DNA of 64,000 nt from assembly GCA_964629685.1 (NCBI GenBank), contig CAZVTT010000002.1, forward strand, positions 120,039-184,038, in the 5' to 3' direction. The notes beneath the pieces were generated by a model. That model had not been told where the DNA came from, searched no databases, and worked only from the letters and a program-made list of their open reading frames with translations. The stretch's first letter is position 1. Each line of letters starts with the position of its first letter. Of the stretch, positions 44,323 to 58,412 are shown piece after piece. The translations under genes and the position numbers were made by a program. The DNA is from an uncultured Gammaproteobacteria bacterium (GTDB lineage Bacteria > Patescibacteriota > Microgenomatia > UBA10105 > UBA927).

Positions 44323-44427
44323 CTACCGCAATGTAAACAGAGGAATGATCGAAGACGCGACCAGCGCTAGGGATGAAACGACAATAACAATTTTCCACAA
44401 TTTTTCGTGTTTTCGGAAAGCGTTCAT
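44323..44427 (-). CDS. Small hydrophobic peptide (34 aa), unlisted; ATG overlaps tyrS stop (ATGA)
   Basis: Sequence MNAFRKHEKLWKIVIVVSSLALVASSIIPLFTLR. The start codon shares A-TGA with the tyrS stop. Its own stop lies 1 nt before the recG GTG. Confidence 0.4.
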   Translation of the reverse strand: MNAFRKHEKLWKIVIVVSSLALVASSIIPLFTLR

Positions 44428-45620
44428 ATAAGTTTAAGAAATGTTTTTTTACCGATTTTTATTATATCACCTGTTTCGAAACTGATAACATCATCCGATG
44501 CTATTACGTTTCCGTTTATATCTACCGCATGTTGTTGGATTAGCCTGCGGGCTTCCGATCTGCTTTTTGCCAATCCGGTAACCACCAGAACGTCTATAAG
44601 CGATGCACCGTCAGGTATATTTGTACGAGGTGTCGTCGGTATATCGACAATATTAAGTGAGCGTTCCTGAAATGTGTGTTCAAAGGCTGCTTGCGCATTA
44701 TCCGCATCCTCTCCACTATGCAGTTCAGCAGTAAGTGTGTGGGCAAGCTGTTTTTTAAACTGCATGGGGTTGGTGCCTTCCTGCATGGCTGTTTCTATTT
44801 TGGTTAAGTCAGCATCGCTAATGTCCGTGAGTAAACGGAAACACGGGAAAATGGCATCATCTCCTAAAGCCATAATTTTGGCGAACAAGTCGGTCGGTTT
44901 ATCGGTAATGCCTATTACGTTCCCTTCGCTTTTACCTATTTTTACACCTTTTGAGTCAGTTAATAGCGGCACGGTCATTACAAATTTTTCTTTGTTTAGC
45001 ATTGCCCGTACAAGTGTACGTCCGGCGAGCATGTTAAATGTCTGATCGGTTCCGCCCAATTCCAGGTCTACCTCCATGGCCACGGAGTCGTATCCCTGCA
45101 ACAACGGGTAGAGAAATTCCCGCAAATTTATAGATTCATTTTTCTTTAACCGTTCCTGAAACATATCGCGTTCAATAAGTTGTTGTACGGAAAAATTTTG
45201 AGCCAGATTCAGAATATCTACCAGGGATAAAGCATTAAGCCAATCGCCGTTGTAGCGTATTTCGACGGGGTTTTCTCCGGTGAAGCGGACAATTTTACCC
45301 GCCTGGTTTACGTAATCCAGTGCATTTTGCCGCAATTCTTCCCGGGTAAAAAATTTTTCCCGGGTTTTTTTCTTTCCTGAAGGGTCACCTGCTTGTCCGG
45401 TGCCGTCTCCGATTAAAAATATTACCTGATGTCCTAAATCCTGAAATTGCCGCAGTTTCCGTAACGCCACCATGTGTCCGATATGTAACTGTGTCCCTGT
45501 GGGGTCAAACCCCTGGTACAGCTTAAGTTTCTTGCCCGATCTCAGCACTTTCTCAAATGCTTCTTTCGAAGGGTATATTGTATCGACTCCACGATGTAGT
45601 AATGTGTGAATTGCGTCCAT
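44424..45620 (-). CDS. tyrS: Tyrosyl-tRNA synthetase
   Basis: HIGH motif (TQLHIGHMV), KMSKS-type KIGKS and a C-terminal S4 domain. Confidence 0.9.
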   Translation of the reverse strand: MDAIHTLLHRGVDTIYPSKEAFEKVLRSGKKLKLYQGFDPTGTQLHIGHMVALRKLRQFQDLGHQVIFLIGDGTGQAGDPSGKKKTREKFFTREELRQNALDYVNQAGKIVRFTGENPVEIRYNGDWLNALSLVDILNLAQNFSVQQLIERDMFQERLKKNESINLREFLYPLLQGYDSVAMEVDLELGGTDQTFNMLAGRTLVRAMLNKEKFVMTVPLLTDSKGVKIGKSEGNVIGITDKPTDLFAKIMALGDDAIFPCFRLLTDISDADLTKIETAMQEGTNPMQFKKQLAHTLTAELHSGEDADNAQAAFEHTFQERSLNIVDIPTTPRTNIPDGASLIDVLVVTGLAKSRSEARRLIQQHAVDINGNVIASDDVISFETGDIIKIGKKTFLKLI

Positions 45621-47200: not shown

Positions 47201-47240
47201 ATACCTCCTAATAAATGAATAAATATAACGAAAATACCAC

Positions 47241-47265
47241 AAAAAAACCTCCCGTCCCGGGAGGT
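47241..47265 (-). promoter_or_regulatory. GC hairpin plus U-tract (terminator-like) in the 5' leader of the PRTase-like gene
   Basis: Minus-strand RNA would read CCUCCCG-GGA-CGGGAGG followed by UUUUUUU, ending 35 nt upstream of the RBS. Confidence 0.45.
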
Positions 47266-47416
47266 CCTGGTAGTACGTTTCCGTTAGTTTACTTAACAAC
47301 AGAGCACGTTACCGACCGCCCGTAAACGGGATAGGTATAGGTATAATACGCTCGGTTGCTTGCAATCATACGATAGCGATTATATCATACGTGAACAGGC
47401 GTGCAAGGTATTTACT

Positions 47417-49978
47417 ATGGCTTTAGCAGATCTTTTTCAGGAACGACAAATGCGGCGACGCTCCGGAGTCAACAAATCCAGGCTAAAACTCCTCACCACA
47501 GCAGTAACGGTGATATTCGTTGGATTTATTGTAATTCTGATTGGGTTTGGACTGCTTTTCGCTTGGTACGCGAAAGATTTACCTAGGCCGGATAAGGTCC
47601 GTCGGGTTGATGGTTTATCTACTGTTATATCCGACAGGAATGGCGAAGGGTTGTACGAAATTTTTGAAGGTGCAAACAGAATCCCCGTTCAGTTTGAAGA
47701 AATCCCCGAGCATTTGCGTAATGCCACGGTTGCCGTTGAAGATAAAAGCTTTTACCAACATCAGGGGTTATCCACAGCCGGAATTATGCGCGCCATGATT
47801 AATATTGTGGTATTCCGCAACATGCAGGGAGGTTCAACCTTAACCCAACAATTAGTCAAAAATGTACTGCTAACCAATGAGCAGACGGTTGCCAGAAAAA
47901 TTAAAGAAGCCGTATTGGCAATACAAATAGAACGGAAGTACACCAAAAACGAAATACTTCAGATGTATCTGAACGAAGCGCCGTATGGTGGTACCGCCGT
48001 AGGCGTAGAATCAGCCAGTCAGTTGTATTTCAGTAAGCATGTCAAAGATCTTAATCTGGTAGAAAGTATTATTCTCGCCGGTTTACCTCAATCTCCGACC
48101 GGGTATTCCCCATTCGGTAACAACCCGGAAGCGTATATTCCCCGGGCACAGGCGGTAGCCAGACGGATGAGGGAAGACGGGTATATTACCGCAATTCAGG
48201 AAACGGAGGTTCGGGATCAACTGGATAAAGTGGAATTTTCAAAAGGTGAAATCGGATTACGGGCATCGCATTTTGTGGAATATGTCAGAGCTCAGCTACT
48301 GGAAAAATTCGGCGAGAAGATGGTAGAAAGCGGAGGTTTAAACGTTACCACGTCTTTAGATTGGGGCCTGCAGGAAAAAACGGAGAATATCGTAAAGGAA
48401 GAAATTGCTAAACTTAAACCGTTACGGGTAACAAATGGCGCAGCAGTGGTGTTGGATCCGACTACCGGTGAAATATTGGCGATGGTGGGTTCAAAAGATT
48501 ATAACGCTTCGGAAAGCGGCGGGTATAAATTTAATGTTGTCACACAGGGATTACGGCAGCCCGGCTCGGCTATCAAGCCGATCGCATACGCAGCGGCATT
48601 AAAAAAGGGCTATACCGCGGCAACAGTGTTAATGGATGTAGAGACAAAATATCCATCCGGAGAAGCCGATAAACCGGAATATAATCCAAAAAATTATGAC
48701 GGGAAATATCGCGGTCCGGTGTTACTTCGGAATGCTCTGGGAAATTCCATAAATACCATAGCTGTTAAAATTACGGCTTTGGTAGGTATTCGTGACGTGC
48801 TCCGTTTAGCCTATGATATGGGTCTCCCTACGCTTGAGCCCACTGATGAAAATTTAAAGCGTTTCGGTCTTTCCATTGCATTGGGGGGTGGTGAGGTTCA
48901 CATGTTGGAATTGGCGAACGCATATGGGGTACTGGCCACCGGAGGTTTTCGCCATGAACCGGTTTCCATTTTGAAAGTTGTGGATGCCAAAGGTAAAGTT
49001 ATCTATGAGCACAAAACACCGACGCCAAAGCGTGTACTTGAACCGGAAATAGCCTTCATCATTTCCAGTATGTTATCGGACAACAATGCCCGTAAGGACG
49101 TTTTCGGTGAACGATCTTTGCTGGTTATCCCAGGTAAAACAGTGGCGGTAAAAACCGGTACTACTGACGATAAACGGGATAACTGGACTGTGGGATATAC
49201 GAAACACGTGGTGGTAGCAACCTGGGTAGGAAACAATGATAATTCTCCAATGCATCCCTCGCTATCTTCAGGTATAACCGGAGCGGCACCGCTCTGGAAT
49301 AAGATTATAAAAGAGGCGCTGAAAGATAAAAAGGATGAACCATTTGATCGTCCGGATGGCATCGTGGAAATGGATATAGATGCTTATGCCGGTGGGCTTC
49401 CTGTCGACGGCGGACAAGTCCGTAAGGAAGTGTTCATAAAAGGAACCGAGCCTACACAGAAAGCATCCGTATATCAGGATCTTCGGCTGTCAAAAAAAGA
49501 TAACAATAAACTTGCCAACTCCGTTGAAATTACCAAAGGTGAGTACGATTCCAAATCGTTCCTGGTCTTTACGGAACTCGACCCGGTTTCCAGCGACGGT
49601 AAAAATCGTTGGCAGGAAGGTATAGATGCTTGGGCTCAATCTCAGTCGGATAACAAATTTAAACCGCCGAAAGAAGTAAATCAGTCTACCGACCAAATCT
49701 CAGTCAGTATAAAGGAGCCGAATAACGGGAGCCGGATTGACTCCAATACCGTTCACATTCGGGCTGAATCCGCGAGTTTAAACGATGTATCCAAAATTGA
49801 AATATATGTAGACGGCGTTCTGGTTGCGGATAAAAATGACCGGTTAATTTCCCAGGATATTACGTTGGAAAATGGTCAGAGGACAATTAAGGCCAAAGCC
49901 ACGGATAGTAAAGGAAACACAGCTGAAGCGGAAGTTAAAGTAGCGATAAACGAGCCGTTTCCTACTCCGAAGCCCTAA
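47417..49978 (+). CDS. Class A penicillin-binding protein (GT51 transglycosylase + transpeptidase) with C-terminal Ig-like extension
   Basis: GT51 motifs (EDKSFYQHQG, GGSTLTQQLVKN); transpeptidase motifs SAIKP, SIN and KTGTTDD. A ~220-aa C-terminal tail. The start could instead be the ATG at 47360. Confidence 0.85.
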   Translation: MALADLFQERQMRRRSGVNKSRLKLLTTAVTVIFVGFIVILIGFGLLFAWYAKDLPRPDKVRRVDGLSTVISDRNGEGLYEIFEGANRIPVQFEEIPEHLRNATVAVEDKSFYQHQGLSTAGIMRAMINIVVFRNMQGGSTLTQQLVKNVLLTNEQTVARKIKEAVLAIQIERKYTKNEILQMYLNEAPYGGTAVGVESASQLYFSKHVKDLNLVESIILAGLPQSPTGYSPFGNNPEAYIPRAQAVARRMREDGYITAIQETEVRDQLDKVEFSKGEIGLRASHFVEYVRAQLLEKFGEKMVESGGLNVTTSLDWGLQEKTENIVKEEIAKLKPLRVTNGAAVVLDPTTGEILAMVGSKDYNASESGGYKFNVVTQGLRQPGSAIKPIAYAAALKKGYTAATVLMDVETKYPSGEADKPEYNPKNYDGKYRGPVLLRNALGNSINTIAVKITALVGIRDVLRLAYDMGLPTLEPTDENLKRFGLSIALGGGEVHMLELANAYGVLATGGFRHEPVSILKVVDAKGKVIYEHKTPTPKRVLEPEIAFIISSMLSDNNARKDVFGERSLLVIPGKTVAVKTGTTDDKRDNWTVGYTKHVVVATWVGNNDNSPMHPSLSSGITGAAPLWNKIIKEALKDKKDEPFDRPDGIVEMDIDAYAGGLPVDGGQVRKEVFIKGTEPTQKASVYQDLRLSKKDNNKLANSVEITKGEYDSKSFLVFTELDPVSSDGKNRWQEGIDAWAQSQSDNKFKPPKEVNQSTDQISVSIKEPNNGSRIDSNTVHIRAESASLNDVSKIEIYVDGVLVADKNDRLISQDITLENGQRTIKAKATDSKGNTAEAEVKVAINEPFPTPKP

Positions 49979-49980
49979 TA

Positions 49981-52002
49981 CTACTGAGTCTTAAGTTCCA
50001 ACCCGATTTCTGTGGCCGCGTTCAGAACCTTTGCACGCAAAGTTTTTATATTTTCCGTCGTTAATGTTTTTGTGGTGTCTAAATATTCAATTCGGATAGT
50101 GCGTATATTCTGATAACTATCTATTAGCAATACGCGACGAATGGTGGGATCAATGGATGTGAATGTCTTGATTAAGGTACCCACCCTGAATCCCGGCGGA
50201 ACAATGAAAGAAAAATCTTCCCGGACTGCCGGATATTTAGGAATGGGGATATACCTTCGTTGCGGATGGGCATGTGCTGCCATTTCATCGAGGTAAAGGT
50301 GTAGTACCGTTAGCGGTTTATTAATATGCATCTCCGTCAGGAGTTGCTGATGTATTTCTCCGAATGATCCGTATCTTCCCAACGAATAGGAATGATGCGG
50401 TTGAAGGTACGGATACGTCGATGCTTCCGGTTCATCCGGGAAAGGAATACCCATACTATCGAATAATGCCTGAGCAAGTCCTTTGGCATGGGCGAATTGT
50501 TCTCCGGTCCAGCAGACGAGGAGTGTCGGGCGTTCGTGCGGCAGTTCCGCCTTCCGGAAATGATATTCCATAGAAAGTTCAAAAAGATTAAACGTGCTGC
50601 GGTGGTGAAGGTTTTCTTCTACTGTTTTTAGCATACTCGGAAGCAGCAGTGGCCTCATGTATACCCATTCTGTCGAAAGCGGGTTAGTTATTTTATAGGC
50701 AGCACCCGTGTCCAGTCCGAACGTTTTCATGAGTTCTTCTGAGATCATTGAATACGTATATGTTTCGGTATATCCCCAATCCCTAAGTTTGGTTTTTATG
50801 ATTTCCTCCCAATTGAGGATAGGATCGGGTTGAACAACCGGTGGCTCGGTGTCCGGTAATCTGGTTTTCAGATTGTGATATCCGTATAATCTGGCAATTT
50901 CTTCAATAATGTCTACGTCGCGCGTAACATCACGTCTGAAGCTGGGGATTTTTGCCGTGACGGTGGTTTTGTTTAGCGTGGGAATAAATCCGAGCGGTGA
51001 GAGTATAGTCTGAATTTCTTTATCTTTGAGATCAACGCCCATATATGCCGATAATTTTTGACGGGTAACGGATACCGAGGAGGGTTTATACGCTTTGGGA
51101 TGTATGTCATATACGCTACTGGCGACTTGGGCACCAGCTAATGTAGTAGCCATTTCTACCCCACGGATAAACGCCGGAAGAACGAGTTCAGTATCCGTTC
51201 CTTTTTCAAAAAGTCCGGCTGCCTCCGTTCGGTGTGCCAGCTTCATGGATGTGCGTCGAATCCGTACAGGATCGTATGTCTGTAAAAATAGAATAACGGT
51301 AGTGGTTTTTTCGGTGATGGAGGAATTTTCCGCTCCCATTATGCCGCACAGATCAATGAGTCTGCCTGATTCGTCTTCGATCACGATGTCACCCCCGGGG
51401 AGGATATGGGTTTTCCCGTCTAACGTCGTAATTTTTTCATGTTTGCGGGATTCACGCAGCTTCATGGTAGGTATTCCGTTTTTGGATGCTATACGGTCAT
51501 AGTCAAATGCATGTGCCGGTTGCCCATAGCAGCGCATCAGGTAATTGGTAATATCAACAACAATATTCAATGAGCGAATACCGGTTTTTTCTAATTTTTG
51601 TTGCAACCATTTCGGCGATGGCCCTACGGTAACATGTTCCAACACAATAGACGTCCAGCGGGGATTTAAGCGAGGGTCGGTAAATATTTTCAGTTTTTTT
51701 GTCCCCGCTCTTTTGTATTTTCGGATAAATGCAGCGGTATCGGTAGCATACGGATCCTGCAGCAGCTTGGCTTTAATGCCAAATCGCGGGAGTATGGCAG
51801 CGGCTTCTCTGGCAACACCGGATACGGACATGGAATCCGGTCTATTCGTCGTAATTTCTATGTCATATACCACTTCGCCATTCACGGTGTTTATCCGTTC
51901 AATAGACGGACCGCAAAGGGAAAGATATTCTTTCAATTGTGCCGGGCTTGCTTTTGTCTGCAAAAATTCCCTTAACCACGAATCAGGTATGAGTATATTC
52001 AT
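49981..52002 (-). CDS. pheT: Phenylalanyl-tRNA synthetase beta subunit (short form, apparently lacking B2 tRNA-binding OB domain)
   Basis: B1 N-terminus (WLREFL), then directly the B3/B4 motif EITTNRPDSMSVSGVAREAAA, a B5 and the C-terminal catalytic-like domain. 673 aa against the usual ~800. Confidence 0.85.
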   Translation of the reverse strand: MNILIPDSWLREFLQTKASPAQLKEYLSLCGPSIERINTVNGEVVYDIEITTNRPDSMSVSGVAREAAAILPRFGIKAKLLQDPYATDTAAFIRKYKRAGTKKLKIFTDPRLNPRWTSIVLEHVTVGPSPKWLQQKLEKTGIRSLNIVVDITNYLMRCYGQPAHAFDYDRIASKNGIPTMKLRESRKHEKITTLDGKTHILPGGDIVIEDESGRLIDLCGIMGAENSSITEKTTTVILFLQTYDPVRIRRTSMKLAHRTEAAGLFEKGTDTELVLPAFIRGVEMATTLAGAQVASSVYDIHPKAYKPSSVSVTRQKLSAYMGVDLKDKEIQTILSPLGFIPTLNKTTVTAKIPSFRRDVTRDVDIIEEIARLYGYHNLKTRLPDTEPPVVQPDPILNWEEIIKTKLRDWGYTETYTYSMISEELMKTFGLDTGAAYKITNPLSTEWVYMRPLLLPSMLKTVEENLHHRSTFNLFELSMEYHFRKAELPHERPTLLVCWTGEQFAHAKGLAQALFDSMGIPFPDEPEASTYPYLQPHHSYSLGRYGSFGEIHQQLLTEMHINKPLTVLHLYLDEMAAHAHPQRRYIPIPKYPAVREDFSFIVPPGFRVGTLIKTFTSIDPTIRRVLLIDSYQNIRTIRIEYLDTTKTLTTENIKTLRAKVLNAATEIGLELKTQ

Positions 52003-52010
52003 AAATGCAT

Positions 52011-53786
52011 TTAGAATTGTTCCAAAAATCTTATGTCATTACTGTACAGTAATCGGATATCATCAAGTTTAGTTCCGGATTTCATCATGTATGTGCGCTC
52101 TACTCCCCATCCAAAGGCAAAGCCGTTGTATATTTGCGTATCCACGTTCCCATTCGCGAGTACTACGGGATGGACCATCCCTGCTCCGCCCAATTCGAGC
52201 CAACCTTCTTTGCAAAGTCTGCACCCGTTGCCGTTACATACATCACAACTTATATCTACTTCAAATGACGGTTCGGTAAATTGAAAATGAAATGGGCGGA
52301 TTCTGGCTTTTCTTTCCGGTCCGAAGAATTGTTTTACGAAATAATCCAGTACTCCTTTTAGATGTCCGATTGAGACATTTTTGTCTACGTATAACCCCTC
52401 AAACTGGTGAAACATAGGCACATGGGAAATGTCCGATTGCCGGCGGTAACACTTGGCTATATTTATCATTCTGATCGGCAAATTCTTTTTTAGCATTTCT
52501 CTGACTTGTCCGTTTGACGTATGTGGTGTCAGAACCATTTTCGAAAATTTTTCATTTTTTGGTTTGCTGTCCACAAAGAACGTTTCCCACTCGTCTCTGG
52601 CCGGATGATCCGGGGGCATGTTTAGCGATTCGAAGGGGTACCAATCCCAATCTACCTCTGGATGTCTTACCCTCGTGAAGCCTATCCGTTCGAATATTTT
52701 GGTAATTTCGGTTATTGCCTGACTTACTATATGCAGGTGTCCCTGAGGCGGCAGGATCCCCGGCACGGAGGTATCAAACGTATCCTGCTCTGTACTTATG
52801 GCATGTTTCCGTTCATATTCCTGTAATGCCACTTCTACCGATGATTTTACTTCATTAATAAGTGTCCCTATGCGTTGCCGTTGCTCTTGCGGTACGAATC
52901 TAAGCTGTCTGGTGAGATTGGCAAACTCACTTTTGCTTCCGAGCATTTTCAATCGGACTTCATTTGGTGGGTCTTCCGATTGGTGAATGGTTGTGAGTGC
53001 AGTCTGTTGTATTTCCAAAATAAGTGAGGTAAGTGCTGAAGGTGATAAGAGTTGTTGTTCGTCAGTTTGTTTTGGAGTTATAACCGGAACACTATAATAT
53101 ACTTTCACCGTGTCTTGGTTGTGGACAATTGCTGTTACGTGAATTTGCCCTACCTCATCCGTAGTTTTTACCTGTGTGCCGCCGTCCGGAATTGGTGTAT
53201 AACCGGCAATATTTACTATACGGAGCGGTTTATGTTTTGGTAAATATTCGGGCACATGCGATACCAGTTGCGCTAATTCCTGAAGTGAAACAAAACGGGT
53301 TGATATTACCAGTTTTCTGCTGATAATTTGATTTGCTGTGTGTTCTATGGGTTTCTGCATTTCTTCCGATATGCTGCCCGAATATTCGATGAAAGACTGG
53401 TCCCCGTGTTCACCCTTTAGCGGTTTTAGTGATGGCACATGGTGCATAACGGCTTCATGCAAAATATGTCCGGCACTATGTACCTGCATATGCCTGTATC
53501 GCAGATTCCAGTTTATGGTTGTTTCAACGATTTCTTCCGGTGAGATTACGCCGTTAAGTTTCCCTTCATGAATAACCGTGCCTTGTTGAAGCCGTACATG
53601 TGTGACGGAAAGCGTTCCGTTTTTCCCGGTGATTTGCCCTTTATCTGAAGGTTGTCCGCCGCCTTGCGGGTAAAATATCGTTTTATCCAGAACGATTTCG
53701 GTTATATCTCCATGTTTGGCCACGGAGATAACTCTCGCGGAGAGTGACTTTTTATAACTGTCGGTTAAATACATGCATTCGGTCAT
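52011..53786 (-). CDS. pheS: Phenylalanyl-tRNA synthetase alpha subunit fused to an N-terminal AlaX-like (tRNA_SAD / editing-type) domain
   Basis: C-terminal 340 aa are canonical PheS class II motifs: DHPARDEW, TPHTSNGQ, FHQFEGL, FQFTEPSFEVD, GFAFGWGVER. N-terminal ~250 aa read MTECMYLTDSY…FYPQGGGQPSDKGQI…HSAGHILH, as in AlaX-M. Start chosen at the ATG at 53786; the listed start at 53828 is a TTG. Confidence 0.8.
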   Translation of the reverse strand: MTECMYLTDSYKKSLSARVISVAKHGDITEIVLDKTIFYPQGGGQPSDKGQITGKNGTLSVTHVRLQQGTVIHEGKLNGVISPEEIVETTINWNLRYRHMQVHSAGHILHEAVMHHVPSLKPLKGEHGDQSFIEYSGSISEEMQKPIEHTANQIISRKLVISTRFVSLQELAQLVSHVPEYLPKHKPLRIVNIAGYTPIPDGGTQVKTTDEVGQIHVTAIVHNQDTVKVYYSVPVITPKQTDEQQLLSPSALTSLILEIQQTALTTIHQSEDPPNEVRLKMLGSKSEFANLTRQLRFVPQEQRQRIGTLINEVKSSVEVALQEYERKHAISTEQDTFDTSVPGILPPQGHLHIVSQAITEITKIFERIGFTRVRHPEVDWDWYPFESLNMPPDHPARDEWETFFVDSKPKNEKFSKMVLTPHTSNGQVREMLKKNLPIRMINIAKCYRRQSDISHVPMFHQFEGLYVDKNVSIGHLKGVLDYFVKQFFGPERKARIRPFHFQFTEPSFEVDISCDVCNGNGCRLCKEGWLELGGAGMVHPVVLANGNVDTQIYNGFAFGWGVERTYMMKSGTKLDDIRLLYSNDIRFLEQF

Positions 53787-53840
53787 ACGTGTGTATGTAT
53801 TGTACGGTGATAGTAACACCGGCTTCAAGCATACGGCAAT

Positions 53841-53864
53841 AAAAAACCTCCTTATCGGAGGTTA
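53841..53864 (-). terminator. Rho-independent terminator/attenuator between rplT and pheS
   Basis: Minus-strand RNA reads AACCUCC-GAUAA-GGAGGUU followed by UUUUUU. The mirror A-tract and T-rich flank make it bidirectional. Confidence 0.7.
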
Positions 53865-53904
53865 CTTTGGGTTTTTCTTGTTTTGCACTATCCCCAAGTA
53901 CCTC

Positions 53905-53952
53905 CTAAAGAAGGCTAAAGTAAAATTCAAAAAAAAGCACGTTTGCTGACAT
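53905..53952 (-). CDS. pheM: pheM-like Phe-rich leader peptide (15 aa), unlisted
   Basis: ATG lies 4 nt after the rplT stop. It encodes MSANVLFFEFYFSLL with 4 Phe and 1 Tyr (E. coli PheM is [15 protein letters not shown]). Its stop abuts a GGAGGUAC segment able to pair with the terminator 5' arm. Confidence 0.6.
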   Translation of the reverse strand: MSANVLFFEFYFSLL

Positions 53953-53956
53953 ACCG

Positions 53957-54307
53957 TTAATTAATGGATTTGGCTTTTTCAACAATTGCAGCAAAGGCTG
54001 CAGGGTTTTCCAATACCAGGTTTGCCAAAATTTTCCGGTCAATTTCGATATTAGCCGCTTTAAGCTGGCTGATAAACCGACTGTAAGACAAGCCATTTTG
54101 TTTTACTGCTTCGGATATCCTGGTAATCCAGAGGCTGCGAAAATCACGTTTGCGAAGTTTTCGGCCGGCATACGCGTATTCGCCGGAAGCGTTGTATACC
54201 TGTTTGGCAACTTTTACCAGCCTGCGCTTTGTCATGCGATAGCCTTTGTTCGCTACCAATAACTTTTTGTGTTTTGCGTGTGTTGTAACTCCTCGTTTGA
54301 CTCTCAT
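53957..54307 (-). CDS. rplT: 50S ribosomal protein bL20
   Basis: MRVKRGVTTHAKHKK… Start moved to the ATG at 54307 with GGAG upstream. Confidence 0.9.
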   Translation of the reverse strand: MRVKRGVTTHAKHKKLLVANKGYRMTKRRLVKVAKQVYNASGEYAYAGRKLRKRDFRSLWITRISEAVKQNGLSYSRFISQLKAANIEIDRKILANLVLENPAAFAAIVEKAKSIN

Positions 54308-54358
54308 AGTCGCTTTCTCCTGTCTTTGCTGCAGCACTTTCTTCTGCTGTGCAAATGA

Positions 54359-54556
54359 TTATGTGTTTAAATATCCTTTTATAACATTAATAATTTTTGT
54401 GGTAGTTAATGTTTTGGGTTTATCCTGACGTCGTTGTTGTGCTTTGCTTTTACGTCGACGTATATGTCGGGCACCTTGTGTCCGGTGAATAACTTTGCCG
54501 TTTTTGGTTAACTTAAACCGTTTGGATACAATTTTTTTCGTTTTAACTTTTGGCAT
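54359..54556 (-). CDS. rpmI: 50S ribosomal protein bL35
   Basis: MPKVKTKKIVSKRFKLTKNGKV…. AGGAG upstream of the ATG at 54556. Confidence 0.9.
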   Translation of the reverse strand: MPKVKTKKIVSKRFKLTKNGKVIHRTQGARHIRRRKSKAQQRRQDKPKTLTTTKIINVIKGYLNT

Positions 54557-54557
54557 A

Positions 54558-55064
54558 TTACTCCTGTTTATCTTTTTTATCGGAAACAACCATAGCGGAA
54601 AGAATTCTTCCTTCCATATGCGGTTCCCGTACTATTCTGGTGTTTTCGGCCACTCCGGCCAGAAAACGCTTTATTATATCAAATCCGAACTCTTTTCGCG
54701 TTATTTCGCGTCCTTTAAAGAAAACATTCAGTTTTACCTGGTTTCCTTCGGCTAAGAAATCCTTAGCTTGTTCGACGCGGGTATCAAAATCATGTTGTCC
54801 CATAAATGGGCGCAGTCTGATTTCTTTTACCCCTACATTTTTTTGTTTTTTCTTACTTTCCCGCTCTTTTTTAGATTCCTGATACTTAAATTTTTTATAA
54901 TCAATGAGCTTCGCTACCGGAGGCCTTGCATTGGGAGCTATTTCGACAACGTCGATATTTAGCTCTTTAGCGCGTTGTAATGCCTCAATCTTATTTACTA
55001 TCCCAATCTGTTTCCCCTCTTCATCAAGCAGACGAAGTGTAGGGCTGGCGATTTGATAGTTAAT
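54558..55064 (-). CDS. infC: Translation initiation factor IF-3, probable non-AUG (AUU) start
   Basis: IF3 N- and C-domain motifs (RLLDEEGKQIGIV…, IRLRPFMGQHDFD…). The first in-frame ATG (55124) would overlap thrS by 50 nt. An in-frame ATT lies 8 nt after the thrS stop. Confidence 0.75.
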   Translation of the reverse strand: MNYQIASPTLRLLDEEGKQIGIVNKIEALQRAKELNIDVVEIAPNARPPVAKLIDYKKFKYQESKKERESKKKQKNVGVKEIRLRPFMGQHDFDTRVEQAKDFLAEGNQVKLNVFFKGREITRKEFGFDIIKRFLAGVAENTRIVREPHMEGRILSAMVVSDKKDKQE

Positions 55065-55074
55065 TCGGTAATGT

Positions 55075-56847
55075 CTAAAGTTTATGCTCAATCTCGTTTT
55101 GAATCCGTTTGGTAAAGTCTGCAAGACTCATTGTCTTGAGGTCTTCTCCCCTGCGATTCCGTACCGAAAGGCCACCCGAGGCCAATTCTCGATCCCCTAT
55201 TATACCCATGTAGGGTACTTTTTGTAAAGTATAGGCGCGTATTTTAGCTTGCATAGACTCGCTCCTATCATCCAGCTCAGCCCGAATACCCCCGGCTTTG
55301 AGTTGTTTTTCCAGCTCACGGGCACCCTCAATATGTCGTTCTGCAATGGGAATTAGCCCCACTTGTACCGGTGCCAGCCATACGGGGAATGCTCCGGCAA
55401 AGTGTTCTATGAGGAAAGCCATAGTACGTTCTATAGCTCCAATAGATGACCGGTGGATCACAATCGGTTCCGTTTCGGAACCTGAGGAGTCTACGTACCG
55501 TAGTTTAAACCGTTTCGGCATGACAAAATCATATTGAACGGTAAATGCCGTTTCTTCTTTCCCCGAAATGTTTTTCATTTGGACATCAATTTTAGGACCA
55601 TAAAAAGCCGCCTCATTTTCGGCTTCATAATACGTAGCCTTCCGGTCCGACAATACCGTACGTAAGACGCTTTCCGCTTCGTCCCACGCAGCATCGTCTT
55701 TATAGTATTTTTTGTCATCGTTCCGGTTGCCCAAAGACAAGCGGTACCGGTAATTTTCTCCAGGGTTTAAACCAAACACCTGTGCCACAGCGTCTATCAA
55801 ATCCAGAACGCCGTTAATTTCCGAGGCTGCCTGATCTTTGGTGGCGATAATGTGTGCATCAGCCAGACAGAACCCTCGGACACGCATAAGTCCGGTGAGT
55901 TCTCCGGATTTTTCATACCGGTAGAGTTTAGCCAGTTCCGCATAACGAACAGGTAACTCTTTATAGCTCCTTGGCCGGGATTTGAATAGTTCAAAATGAT
56001 GCGGACAGGTCATGGGGCGCAGCATATATTCTTCATCGTCTATGGTTATCGGTGCGTACATTGTGTCTTTATAATATGGATAATGTCCTGACGTTTTGTA
56101 TAATTCCAGATTGGCGATGTCCGGCGTGTATACATGCAGGTAGCCACGTTTTAACTCTTCGTCCACGATAAAGCGTTCAAGTTCTCTCCGTACCGTAGCT
56201 CCTTTTGGTGTCCAAAGCGGTAGTCCTTTGCCGACCAGATCGGAAAATACAAACAAGTCCAGGTCCGCACCAAGTTTCCGGTGATCCCGCTTTCTGGCTT
56301 CTTCCTGCATCGTTAAGAACGCTTCCAATTCCGCACGTGTCGGAAAACAGGTACCGTATATTCTGGTTAACATTTTGTTTTTTTCGCTTCCGCGCCAGTA
56401 TGCTCCGGCCACGCTAAGCAATTTAAAATGCTTTAGTTCCTTATCTGGATGCTGGCAGTGTCCACCGCGGCATAGATCCCAATACGAACCGGATTTATAG
56501 AAGGTAAGCGTTTGTCCTTCTCCGGAAAACTCATCAATCAATTCATGTTTATATACGTTGTCGGGATATTCCTGTTTAGCTGATTCAGGTGATAGCTCAT
56601 GTCGTTCAAACGATTTCCATTGTGGCAGAAGTTCTTTCATTTTTTCTTCTATAGCCGGAAAGTCGTCTTCGGATACTTTTATGTCACCGAAGTCAAAATC
56701 AAAATAAAAACCGGTTTCAATTGCCGGGCCTATGGTGCGTTTGGCATTCGGCCATAGTTCCATTACCGCTGCGGCCAATAGGTGTGCGCAAGAATGACGC
56801 AGGTGTTCTAGTTTTTCTCTATCGTGACTATCCATATTTCCTCCCAT
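55075..56847 (-). CDS. thrS: Threonyl-tRNA synthetase (lacking N-terminal TGS domain; editing HxxxH/CxxxH present)
   Basis: HSCAHLL and DLCRGGHC editing motifs, then class II catalytic motifs and an anticodon-binding domain. Confidence 0.9.
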   Translation of the reverse strand: MGGNMDSHDREKLEHLRHSCAHLLAAAVMELWPNAKRTIGPAIETGFYFDFDFGDIKVSEDDFPAIEEKMKELLPQWKSFERHELSPESAKQEYPDNVYKHELIDEFSGEGQTLTFYKSGSYWDLCRGGHCQHPDKELKHFKLLSVAGAYWRGSEKNKMLTRIYGTCFPTRAELEAFLTMQEEARKRDHRKLGADLDLFVFSDLVGKGLPLWTPKGATVRRELERFIVDEELKRGYLHVYTPDIANLELYKTSGHYPYYKDTMYAPITIDDEEYMLRPMTCPHHFELFKSRPRSYKELPVRYAELAKLYRYEKSGELTGLMRVRGFCLADAHIIATKDQAASEINGVLDLIDAVAQVFGLNPGENYRYRLSLGNRNDDKKYYKDDAAWDEAESVLRTVLSDRKATYYEAENEAAFYGPKIDVQMKNISGKEETAFTVQYDFVMPKRFKLRYVDSSGSETEPIVIHRSSIGAIERTMAFLIEHFAGAFPVWLAPVQVGLIPIAERHIEGARELEKQLKAGGIRAELDDRSESMQAKIRAYTLQKVPYMGIIGDRELASGGLSVRNRRGEDLKTMSLADFTKRIQNEIEHKL

Positions 56848-56913
56848 AAAAAAAACCGTTCTTTTTTGCGAACCCCACGAAAGCGGGATGGTTCCATCGC
56901 AAGTAAAAAACGG
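56848..56913 (-). promoter_or_regulatory. Compound hairpin plus U8 tract immediately upstream of the thrS RBS (attenuator-like leader)
   Basis: Minus-strand RNA reads CCGUUUUUUACUUGC…inner GAACC/GGUUC hairpin…GCAAAAAAGAACGG then UUUUUUUU, AUGGGAGG and AUG. The whole leader is 171 nt. Confidence 0.45.
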
Positions 56914-57018
56914 TACTTAATTTCCGTCATTTCGCTGACTTCTGCGATACACTTTGAGGTTGGTGAAGTCTCATGCGGACGTGTATGGCCAGATGGTACG
57001 ACACCTTGAAAGGTTCTG

Positions 57019-57558
57019 TCAAGCAGTTTTGTGTACTTTTGTTGCGGGTACGCGAAACGCATACACATGTAAATCCTTGTCTTCGGACAGAATTTTCCAA
57101 TCGGGAAAAATAAAGCTATTGGAAATTACCCGCGTCCCGGGCTTAAGGTCCCGCATGAGTTTTTCCTGTAGTGCCTTCATTCTCCATGGGAGAAGATATA
57201 CAAACACCGCGTCCGCATCCTTAATCTCAGCAGTCCAGAAGTTGGACCATTTGGTTTTTGCCTTTTTACGATAGGGAGTAAACCAGGATCTGATAGTTGA
57301 GTACCATACCAAAAAAAGATTAATTTCATATCCGGTTGCTACTACTCCCCGTGCTGCAGCTGCGAACAGCAGTCGTCCGTCACCGGATCCCAGGTCATAT
57401 ATTTTTTCACCCGGTTGCAGTTTTGCTAACTCAATCATTTTTTGTGTTGTAGACGGTGTAGACGGTACAAAGGGAGCGCCCGTTACAAACGCCAAACATA
57501 AAAAAATAAAGAGACACAGAAACAGAAATTGAAACACGATAAATAGTACGTCGATCAT
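57019..57558 (-). CDS. Class I SAM-dependent methyltransferase with N-terminal membrane anchor
   Basis: DLGSGDGRL motif I after a hydrophobic N-terminus. Confidence 0.6.
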   Translation of the reverse strand: MIDVLFIVFQFLFLCLFIFLCLAFVTGAPFVPSTPSTTQKMIELAKLQPGEKIYDLGSGDGRLLFAAAARGVVATGYEINLFLVWYSTIRSWFTPYRKKAKTKWSNFWTAEIKDADAVFVYLLPWRMKALQEKLMRDLKPGTRVISNSFIFPDWKILSEDKDLHVYAFRVPATKVHKTA

Positions 57559-57806
57559 AGTGATGATTTTAGATAGTGAGTATCAGTTTGATTTATATTG
57601 TTCAGCTTGACTGGGCATGCAATAGTATTTTACTATTGGTCACATCTGTGAGTGGCAATAATTAATGTTGCGTAAATTACAGTGTGATTGTACTAACTTT
57701 ATGAGTCAACCTGCCTTGACCATTATAGCGCGTTTTTCTATTTTTTCTTCACTACCTACGCTATCTTCGCATATTCATAACCTTATACGAAGGGAGGTGA
57801 AAAATA

Positions 57807-58412
57807 ATGGAATTTAAACGAATCAGTGCAGGAATCGCATCTGCATCCCTTATTGCTACCCTACTGGCTCCTGCGGCTTTTGCAGAGACCACGGTAACGG
57901 TTGAAGGAAACGGTGCCGATTCTCATAATGTGGTTGAATTAACCACAGCAAACACTACTACCGTGGATGTTATAACGGAAACAAATGTCAGTAATAAAGT
58001 AAAAACTACAGCCAATTCCGGCAATAACAAAGCCAGTGGTAACACCGGCGACGGAAACGTGACGGTAGGTTCCGGAGATGCAACCGCAACCACAACTGTT
58101 ACTACGCTGGTAGGCGGTACATCTGTAACCGTCGAAGGCAATTGCGGCTGCGAGAAAGATACAGACGTAACCGTAAAAGGTAATGGTGTAGATTCTTACT
58201 CAAAAGTAAAACTGAATAATACTAACGCCAAAGCTGTTGGTGTTGCTGCGTCCGCTAAGGTTAAATCCAAAGTTAAGACAAAAGCGAAATCAGGTAAGAA
58301 TATTGCCAAGAACAACACTGGCGTGGGAGACACCGATGTTTCATCAGGTGACGCAACCAGTGATACAACTATTGATACTGTTGTTGAACCAACAACCGTA
58401 TCGGTAAAGTAA
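57807..58412 (+). CDS. Secreted repeat protein (paralog family A; 2 repeat units, no anchor)
   Basis: Signal peptide (…APAAFA|ETT), two units of a GNGxDSxNxVxL…NSGNNxAxGNTGxGxVxVGSGDAxA repeat and an NCGCE Cys pair. GGGAGGTGAAAAATAATG RBS context. Confidence 0.75.
   Translation: MEFKRISAGIASASLIATLLAPAAFAETTVTVEGNGADSHNVVELTTANTTTVDVITETNVSNKVKTTANSGNNKASGNTGDGNVTVGSGDATATTTVTTLVGGTSVTVEGNCGCEKDTDVTVKGNGVDSYSKVKLNNTNAKAVGVAASAKVKSKVKTKAKSGKNIAKNNTGVGDTDVSSGDATSDTTIDTVVEPTTVSVK

Follow-up and report, generated by a model that had tools for sequence, protein, structure and literature searches.

A putative phenylalanine leader-peptide attenuator between rplT and pheST in a bacterium of the candidate phyla radiation

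Transcription attenuation of the phenylalanyl-tRNA synthetase genes pheST has been placed in gammaproteobacteria and T-box control in Firmicutes (PMC1262725); outside gammaproteobacteria, attenuators of aminoacyl-tRNA synthetase (aaRS) genes are known from the trpS and leuS leaders of Streptomyces (PMC1262725). In Escherichia coli, pheM (b1715; locus L001 of our set), the attenuator of pheST-ihfA, lies in the gene order thrS-infC-rpmI-rplT-leader-pheS-pheT. We found the same order in a 64-kb stretch of DNA (contig CAZVTT010000002.1; the whole stretch is called the window here), and the element between its rplT and pheS is predicted, with a rough probability of 80%, to be a ribosome-mediated leader-peptide attenuator with charged tRNA-Phe as its signal, by which read-through from the thrS-infC-rpmI-rplT unit into pheST is controlled. 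Judged by its sequence, the window belongs to a Gottesmanbacteria-like member of the candidate phyla radiation (CPR; Patescibacteria, Microgenomates), bacteria with tiny genomes and few recognisable regulators. We know of no cultured models in this group and, to our knowledge, almost nothing has been learned about how its gene expression is controlled.

The leader is an open reading frame (ORF) of 15 codons plus TAG (53905-53952, on the minus strand like the other features of the window described below) that encodes MSANVLFFEFYFSLL. Its ATG (53952-53950) follows the rplT stop codon TAA (53959-53957) after the four nucleotides CGGT, and its codons are ATG TCA GCA AAC GTG CTT TTT TTT GAA TTT TAC TTT AGC CTT CTT TAG. 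The peptide thus contains four Phe residues, all within six codons, and one Tyr, and the regulatory codons would be the run UUU UUU GAA UUU UAC UUU (Phe7, Phe8, Phe10, Tyr11, and Phe12; 53917-53934). An earlier reading of this DNA, made without database searches (the sequence-only reading), had described this ORF, its composition, and a stop codon embedded in UAGGAGGUAC, and the sequence bears out all three; the stop lies at 53907-53905.

Three alternative helices can be folded in silico downstream of the Phe codons. Region 1, GCCUUC (53910-53915), forms a small hairpin with region 2 (GGAGGU) around the loop UUUA (−6.6 kcal/mol folded alone). Region 2 as a whole (GGAGGUACUUGGG; 53893-53905), whose first base is the G of the leader stop codon, is the 5' strand of the antiterminator, and region 3 (CCCAAAGUAACCUCC; 53857-53871) is its 3' strand. 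The two pair over 13 bp (−17.5 kcal/mol, z = −3.9), confirming the proposed pairing of the segment around the leader stop with the 5' arm of the terminator: the last 7 nt of region 3 are that arm, so that antiterminator and terminator share a strand and are mutually exclusive. The intrinsic terminator itself (53838-53863) was found by a consensus scan as AACCUCC (53863-53857)-GAUAA-GGAGGUU (53851-53845) followed by UUUUAUU, and folded alone it reaches −10.8 kcal/mol (z = −4.1). The stem and loop are those given in the sequence-only reading, which had also assigned the hairpin a tail of six U residues; once the AA/UU pairs are counted into the stem, only UUUU-A-UU remains. The minimum free energy structure of the whole region (−41.3 kcal/mol, z = −3.2) contains the antiterminator.

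The proposed mechanism begins with ribosomes that finish rplT and would start on the leader 4 nt further on, by stop-start coupling. With Phe-tRNA plentiful, such a ribosome would reach the UAG; because region 2 begins with the G of that stop codon, a terminating ribosome must cover region 2, whereupon regions 3 and 4 would pair and RNA polymerase would terminate at the U-tract (53844-53838). With Phe-tRNA scarce, the ribosome would stall on the UUU codons at positions 7 to 12. Since 12 nt separate the last Phe codon from region 2, a ribosome stalled at that codon would cover region 1 and spare region 2, which would be free to form the 13-bp antiterminator with region 3; no terminator would form, and transcription would enter pheST. 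This model predicts that the leader is translated, that transcripts end at the hairpin in vivo, and that the switch responds to Phe. In a partition-function model with the ribosome footprint masked, the terminator formed with a probability of 1.00 when the ribosome was placed on the stop codon and of 0.00 to 0.26 when it was placed on the Phe codons; this result is only indicative, since the experimentally validated attenuator of E. coli pheM, taken as a control, did not switch in that model.

Consistently with Phe sensing, the genes downstream of the leader are tied to this amino acid. The genes under its putative control were identified as pheS (52011-53786; Pfam tRNA-synt_2d, E = 2.8e-78, and Phe_tRNA-synt_N) and pheT (49981-52002; Pfam B3_4, B5, tRNA_synthFbeta, and FDX-ACB). 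The pheS start is probably the ATG at 53786 or that at 53774, 53 to 65 nt past the U-tract, so that the distance of about 50 nt given in the sequence-only reading was near the shorter value and falls below the longer one.

A PheS protein search of a genome collection yielded 80 loci. In the closest of them, PheS is 55 to 61% and L20 up to 78% identical to the protein of the window, and they come from metagenome-assembled genomes named Candidatus Gottesmanbacteria, Amesbacteria, Woesebacteria, Pacebacteria, or “Patescibacteria group”. Many TPA records of such genomes (binchicken_/SRP..._co) titled “uncultured Gammaproteobacteria” (L003, L005 to L008, L012, and others) clearly belong to this CPR lineage: they carry Gottesmanbacteria-like PheS and L20 together with the CPR attenuator, and these titles appear to be wrong. 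The rplT gene lies upstream of pheS at 57 of the 80 loci and the attenuator element at 39. Where the gap between rplT and pheS is at least about 165 nt, a short Phe-rich ORF is almost always found 2 to 14 nt past the rplT stop, and at some loci a few hundred nucleotides later; examples of the leaders are MNGKFVFSFFFLPA, MNRVYQKFFFFSFSS, MASQRAFFAFFFASKQGGSLGVVR, and MNTNVNSYFAFFTS. The sequence-only reading had proposed looking for the same peptide upstream of pheS in related genomes, and orthologous Phe-rich ORFs are indeed conserved at 38 related loci, with the N-terminus and the length of the leader varying freely. An ORF scan detected 34 relatives with a short Phe-rich ORF, each trailed by a strong hairpin and T-tract 90 to 138 nt past the ATG, and in all 39 relatives a terminator stands past the leader ORF and ahead of the structural genes.

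We built a covariance model from 35 sequences (R1) and rebuilt it without the window (R2). Run on 732 kb, R1 found 40 sites at E < 0.01, all of them upstream of pheS and on the pheS strand; five lay outside the seed, one of them in Amesbacteria (MKTATRKVFFAFFFTS) and one in Pacebacteria (MVNIKFFSSYFFNFQK). With R2 and with filters off, the element of the window scored 48.4 bits (E = 7.4e-6), the best match in the 64 kb. The element is absent from loci with a short spacer between rplT and pheS, except L032 and L054, and from the fetched loci whose pheS has no rplT upstream, except L015 and L018.

The leaders bear the marks of a coding constraint. Phe makes up 20.7% of the 759 residues of 39 leaders, whose in-frame codons include 114 TTT and 43 TTC versus 2 CTT and 6 TCT. 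Of the 38 internal C residues in pyrimidine runs, 32 occupy the third codon position, six the second, and none the first. We also applied a generic scan for ATG-initiated ORFs of 8 to 35 codons with at least four identical residues in eight, followed by a terminator. It returned 23 Phe-rich matches in 730 kb from the relatives, compared with at most four for any other amino acid, and a scan for a short ORF rich in a single amino acid plus a terminator returned only four candidates in the 64-kb window.

The regions delineated by eye across the family have a common layout: region 1 right after the last Phe codon (e.g., CCUCGC), region 2 as GCGGGG..CUUUGGGU, region 3 as ACCCAAG..CCCCGC, and region 4 as GCGGGG followed by U6. 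All four switch type together, between CCUCC/GGAGG, CCCCGC/GCGGGG, GCUCCC/GGGAGC, and CUCUCC/GGAGAG. The terminator is of the CCUCC/GGAGG type in the window and in L004, L010, L016, L017, L031, L057, and L060, and regions 1 and 2 change along with it; they likewise match in L013, which represents the GCUCCC/GGGAGC type, and in L054, which represents the CUCUCC/GGAGAG type. In the covariance model alignment, 88.8% of the cells of the terminator state were paired, and covariation was 0.439 versus 0.222 in shuffles (0 of 500 reached it), with slid controls at or below 0.154. The terminator helix was 95% paired in 40 sequences, with changes on both sides at six of eight pairs, and the columns of the 1:2 helix also covary in the family. 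The corresponding values for the antiterminator were 71.5% paired and a score of 0.213 versus 0.134 (0 of 500), diluted by register errors. Both the MAFFT alignment (A1) and the covariance model alignment (A3) contain register shifts in regions 1, 2, and 3b, which lower the antiterminator counts, and we therefore used an alignment-free duplex test of own versus foreign partners. Region 2 paired with region 3 of the same locus had a mean of −18.5 kcal/mol, which none of 10,000 permutations reached, against −13.4 kcal/mol with foreign partners. The two mutually exclusive pairings, for which the sequence-only reading had suggested a folding analysis, thus both exist and covary.

No Shine-Dalgarno sequence precedes any leader of the family, that of the window included, and the window has neither a recognisable promoter for the leader nor a terminator of rplT upstream of it. 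The missing Shine-Dalgarno sequence, together with an ATG 4 nt past the rplT stop, makes translation by ribosomes terminating on rplT probable. In 19 of 39 loci, a full promoter of the form TTGnnn-N16-18-TAnnnT lies inside the end of rplT, compared with 0.84% of control ATGs (p ~2e-29); the rplT stop is often part of its −10 box (TAAAAT), which ends 5 to 10 nt before the leader ATG. At L034, L019, L004, L005, L012, L030, L064, L018, and others, the canonical promoter TTGACA-N17-TAAAAT is found in the last ~40 nt of rplT, its −10 box enclosing the rplT stop and the leader ATG lying 7 to 9 nt on. A promoter that abuts the leader ATG in this way implies a leaderless mRNA for the leader. The window falls into a subgroup, with L003, L008, L009, L013, L020, and L026, in which 2 to 5 nt separate the rplT stop from the ATG and no −10 box is present; here the leader must be cotranscribed with rplT, and stop-start coupling is the probable route to its translation. 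In this subgroup, the attenuator terminator is also the sole terminator of the upstream ribosomal protein operon.

Between the terminator and pheS, the window contains a promoter-like element, TTGAAG-N18-TACAAT (53799-53828), with 9 of 12 matches. The arrangement TTGnnn-N17/18-TACAAT, 12 to 17 nt, and ATG is shared by L008, L020, L026, and L030; in L028 and L032, TACAAT precedes the pheS ATG and the −35 spacing is missing. With TACAAT 12 to 17 nt before the pheS ATG and no Shine-Dalgarno sequence, very short 5' untranslated regions are suggested for this lineage. The element of the window probably provides basal, attenuator-independent transcription of pheST, to which the attenuator would add the inducible part. 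In most relatives, an ATG or GTG is found 7 to 9 nt past region 4, after the U-tract (e.g., GGAGGUUUUUUGAUGG). Given this placement at Shine-Dalgarno distance, region 4 may also serve for ribosome binding once transcripts have read through. The ATGG or GTGG after the U-tract is seen, for example, at 3710 in L003, 3680 in L021, and ~1690 in L002. The ORFs that begin there are 70 and 94 amino acids long in L003 and L021 and 3 to 5 codons long (MVG and a stop) in L002, L034, and L009; the window has GGAGG-N7-UUG and an ORF of four codons (UUG CCG UAU GCU UGA).

Several of these observations weigh against an attenuator at this locus. With neither a Shine-Dalgarno sequence nor a recognisable promoter to itself, the window leader would depend on stop-start coupling for its translation. 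The 1:2 hairpin is weak, and with no ribosome on the RNA, the equilibrium structure is the antiterminator rather than the terminator. The family alignments contain register errors, and the antiterminator pair counts are modest. The mask model gave no switch for E. coli pheM, with values of 0.87 to 0.99 throughout, and the promoter-like element past the terminator may make pheST expression largely independent of attenuation. This last element also belongs to a rival account, in which the hairpin does no more than end transcription of infC-rpmI-rplT as an intrinsic terminator, pheST depends entirely on the promoter at 53828-53799, and the ORF and its complementarities are incidental to a T-rich spacer. 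Such an account fits with there being no second terminator between rplT and pheS, with the conservation of TTGnnn-N17/18-TACAAT past the terminator, and with the ease with which T-rich spacers encode Phe. It does not, however, explain why 38 other loci keep the ORF in frame together with its Phe run, with the internal C mostly at the third position and never at the first, why region 2 covaries with regions 3 and 4, or why the generic scan favors Phe over every other amino acid. Moreover, relatives with a gap below 130 nt (except L032 and L054) have neither the ORF nor a terminator, which argues that a terminator after rplT is not obligatory. We consider the incidental origin very unlikely.

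A switch mainly at the level of translation, in which region 4 (GGAGG) serves as the Shine-Dalgarno sequence of the start after the U-tract and the pairings gate the downstream ORF instead of, or besides, termination, is also very unlikely. It draws on the conserved ATG or GTG past region 4, on the longer ORFs of L003 and L021, and on the GGAGG-N7-UUG of the window, but the ORF in question has only four codons in the window and three in L002 and L034, region 4 makes a poor Shine-Dalgarno sequence in its GCGGGG variants, and a GC-rich stem followed by U6-8 in every member is the signature of intrinsic termination. The position beside rplT would suit L20 binding, and control by a bound protein or tRNA is frequent for ribosomal protein operons and aaRS genes in other phyla, so we also considered autoregulation by L20 or PheRS and a T-box-like riboswitch, with the ORF left untranslated. 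At E ≤ 1, however, no T-box, L20_leader, or other Rfam family apart from Phe_leader matched in 49500-58000, and on this basis we rejected a T-box or an L20 leader; what is conserved is a run of Phe codons that wobble at the third position rather than a structured binding site, the N-terminus and length of the leader are free to vary, and a Tyr codon run before tyrS (see below) is what codon-based sensing predicts. A bound RNA of this kind is highly improbable. Ribosome stalling and attenuation, as the sequence-only reading had proposed, is well supported in silico.

A second candidate attenuator precedes the tyrS operon of the window. R1 and R2 also flagged 47240-47372 (27.5 bits, E = 0.024), where a putative Tyr leader ORF, MIASNRAYYTYTYPVYGRSVTCSVVK and a stop (47369-47289), has 5 Tyr in 9 residues and is part of an attenuator that spans to 47241. 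TATAAT (47384-47379) is followed after 9 nt by the ATG of this leader. The antiterminator reaches −27.8 kcal/mol, and the terminator, ACCUCCCG-GGA-CGGGAGGU followed by U6, −16.1 kcal/mol. Downstream lies a four-gene operon for a phosphoribosyltransferase-like protein of 206 amino acids, a protein of 149 amino acids, an SLOG/LDcluster4 protein, and tyrS (44424-45620). A metagenome scan for relatives of the 206-amino-acid gene found none, but a protein search with contig look-ups did find homologous operons, which likewise end in tyrS. The closest of them, L086 (58% protein identity), has TATAAT, 9 nt, and an ATG opening MIASNRPQTTSAYYYTPASGRMVACRMG, followed by a terminator. In L088/L089, two tandem terminator-containing elements (~1180-1500) precede a tyrS operon that is distantly homologous; the second contains the in-frame run UAU UAU UAC UAU, with no canonical start after an in-frame TAA. 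That the codon run fits the synthetase encoded downstream in both operons supports attenuation and suggests that it is in wider use within the lineage.

The genes upstream of the Phe leader form a thrS-infC-rpmI-rplT unit, of which thrS (55075-56847) is the first gene, followed by infC (54558-55124), rpmI (54359-54589), and rplT (53957-54307, in an ORF of 53957-54337; Pfam Ribosomal_L20, E = 3e-37). The start of rplT, which encodes ribosomal protein L20, is likely the ATG at residue 11 of this ORF (MRVKRGV). Right before the thrS start, at 56848-56935, there is a long hairpin (ACCGUUUUUUACUUGCG...CGCAAAAAAGAACGGU) followed by U8, and upstream of it a TTGACA-N18-TACCAT promoter (57022-56993). 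No Thr-rich ORF accompanies this hairpin, which folds no better than shuffles do (z = −1.0).

On the other side of the leader, the genes around pheS vary among the relatives. PheS of the window has an unusual N-terminal fusion of ~240 amino acids that resembles an AlaX/AlaRS editing domain (Pfam tRNA-synt_2c, residues 34-108) and accounts for a PheS length of 587 to 605 amino acids; L002 to L018, L025, and L034 share the fusion, and other related loci are without it. Small Cys-rich ORFs of 70 to 99 amino acids (MTEC../MKEC..GSCxGC) lie between the attenuator and pheS in L002, L017, L060, and L081, and the pheS ORF of the window opens with MTEC-MYLTD (53775-53786), possibly a remnant of such an ORF. 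Other genes found between the Phe attenuator and pheS are those for shikimate kinase and a NUDIX protein (L025, 3053-3989), a class I/II aminotransferase (L006, 2529-3947), GNAT, M20 peptidase, and DUF2000 proteins (L016, 1279-3982), and a methyltransferase (L010, 2515-3231). A tie of the attenuator to aromatic amino acid genes was considered and dropped, the genes inserted before pheS being a mixed set.

While the classical attenuator mechanism is textbook knowledge, its presence and conservation in CPR, in a form without Shine-Dalgarno sequences that is possibly leaderless or coupled, are new. The literature searched contains no paper joining Patescibacteria with transcription attenuation, or the candidate phyla radiation with a leader peptide and attenuation, and pheS is not mentioned in PMC2965389 or PMC4833913; the sequence-only reading had called the occurrence in this lineage noteworthy, and this judgment holds for a CPR bacterium. 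Judged by the conserved, covarying Phe element and its Tyr counterpart, these presumed amino acid auxotrophs appear to monitor tRNA charging and to adjust synthetase supply, and they appear to use intrinsic termination, with ribosome and polymerase closely coupled. It is tempting, at somewhat less than even odds, to assume a lineage-specific set of Microgenomates-type CPR attenuators on aaRS operons (pheST and tyrS), whose leader peptides lack Shine-Dalgarno sequences, are translated by stop-start coupling or from leaderless mRNAs with a −10 box over the rplT stop, and arose independently of proteobacterial pheM and pheL. If so, no cis-regulatory RNA mechanism would have been described for CPR before, within the literature searched, and tight transcription-translation coupling would be implied for these ultra-small cells. 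Classical attenuation of aaRS genes would extend beyond gammaproteobacteria and actinobacteria. The compact RNA element (~115 nt) can be used for heterologous reporters and the covariance model for the annotation of CPR genomes.

The comparison with E. coli pheM extends beyond gene order. Both leaders have 14 to 15 codons with clustered Phe codons and the identical stretch TTTTACTTTAGC (FYFS), both have a GGAGG-type region 2 near the leader stop and a CCUCC-loop-GGAGG terminator with a U run, and R1 matched pheM over its full length (34.1 bits), the best match in the 4.5-kb E. coli locus. They differ in the spacer between rplT and the leader, which is 122 nt in E. coli, with room for a terminator and a promoter, and 4 nt in the window. 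Unlike pheM, the window leader has neither a promoter nor a Shine-Dalgarno sequence, a promoter-like element lies past its terminator, and its host is a CPR bacterium rather than a gammaproteobacterium. The sequence-only reading had stressed a strong resemblance to the PheM peptide, quoting 15 letters with a terminal P. PheM of E. coli has 14 amino acids and no P, which belongs to PheL, and of the resemblance, the part that stands is likeness to Phe leaders in general.

RF01859 (Phe_leader), which is based on E. coli pheL, matched the window over the full model (34.5 bits, E = 0.0078), below its gathering score of 55; at gathering thresholds, Rfam found nothing in the whole window, and at E ≤ 1 the T-box family (RF00230) had no match in 49500-58000, where only Phe_leader matched. 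The pheL leader ends in ...FFF-T-F/S, with UUC UUU UUU ACC U.C as in the CPR consensus, and is followed by a 1:2 hairpin and a terminator, but it controls the biosynthetic gene pheA rather than an aaRS operon and has another genomic context. Among E. coli leaders, R1 gave 42.9 bits to pheL, 34.1 bits to pheM, and at most 12.7 bits to thrL, hisL, and trpL, which is no match. Because pheL scores above pheM, specific homology to pheM is not claimed: the similarity to pheM is no greater than that to pheL, so common descent is not shown. The element appears to work like pheM and pheL and to share with them a general sequence grammar of Phe attenuators; descent from pheM cannot be demonstrated. T-box control of pheST in Firmicutes also chooses between terminator and antiterminator according to the charging of tRNA-Phe, at the same genes, but it senses the uncharged tRNA directly and has no leader ORF. 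The trpS and leuS leaders of Streptomyces serve other amino acids in another phylum, and the likeness meant here is one of architecture: like the element described here, they place a leader-peptide attenuator before an aaRS gene, in a phylum without classical T-boxes.

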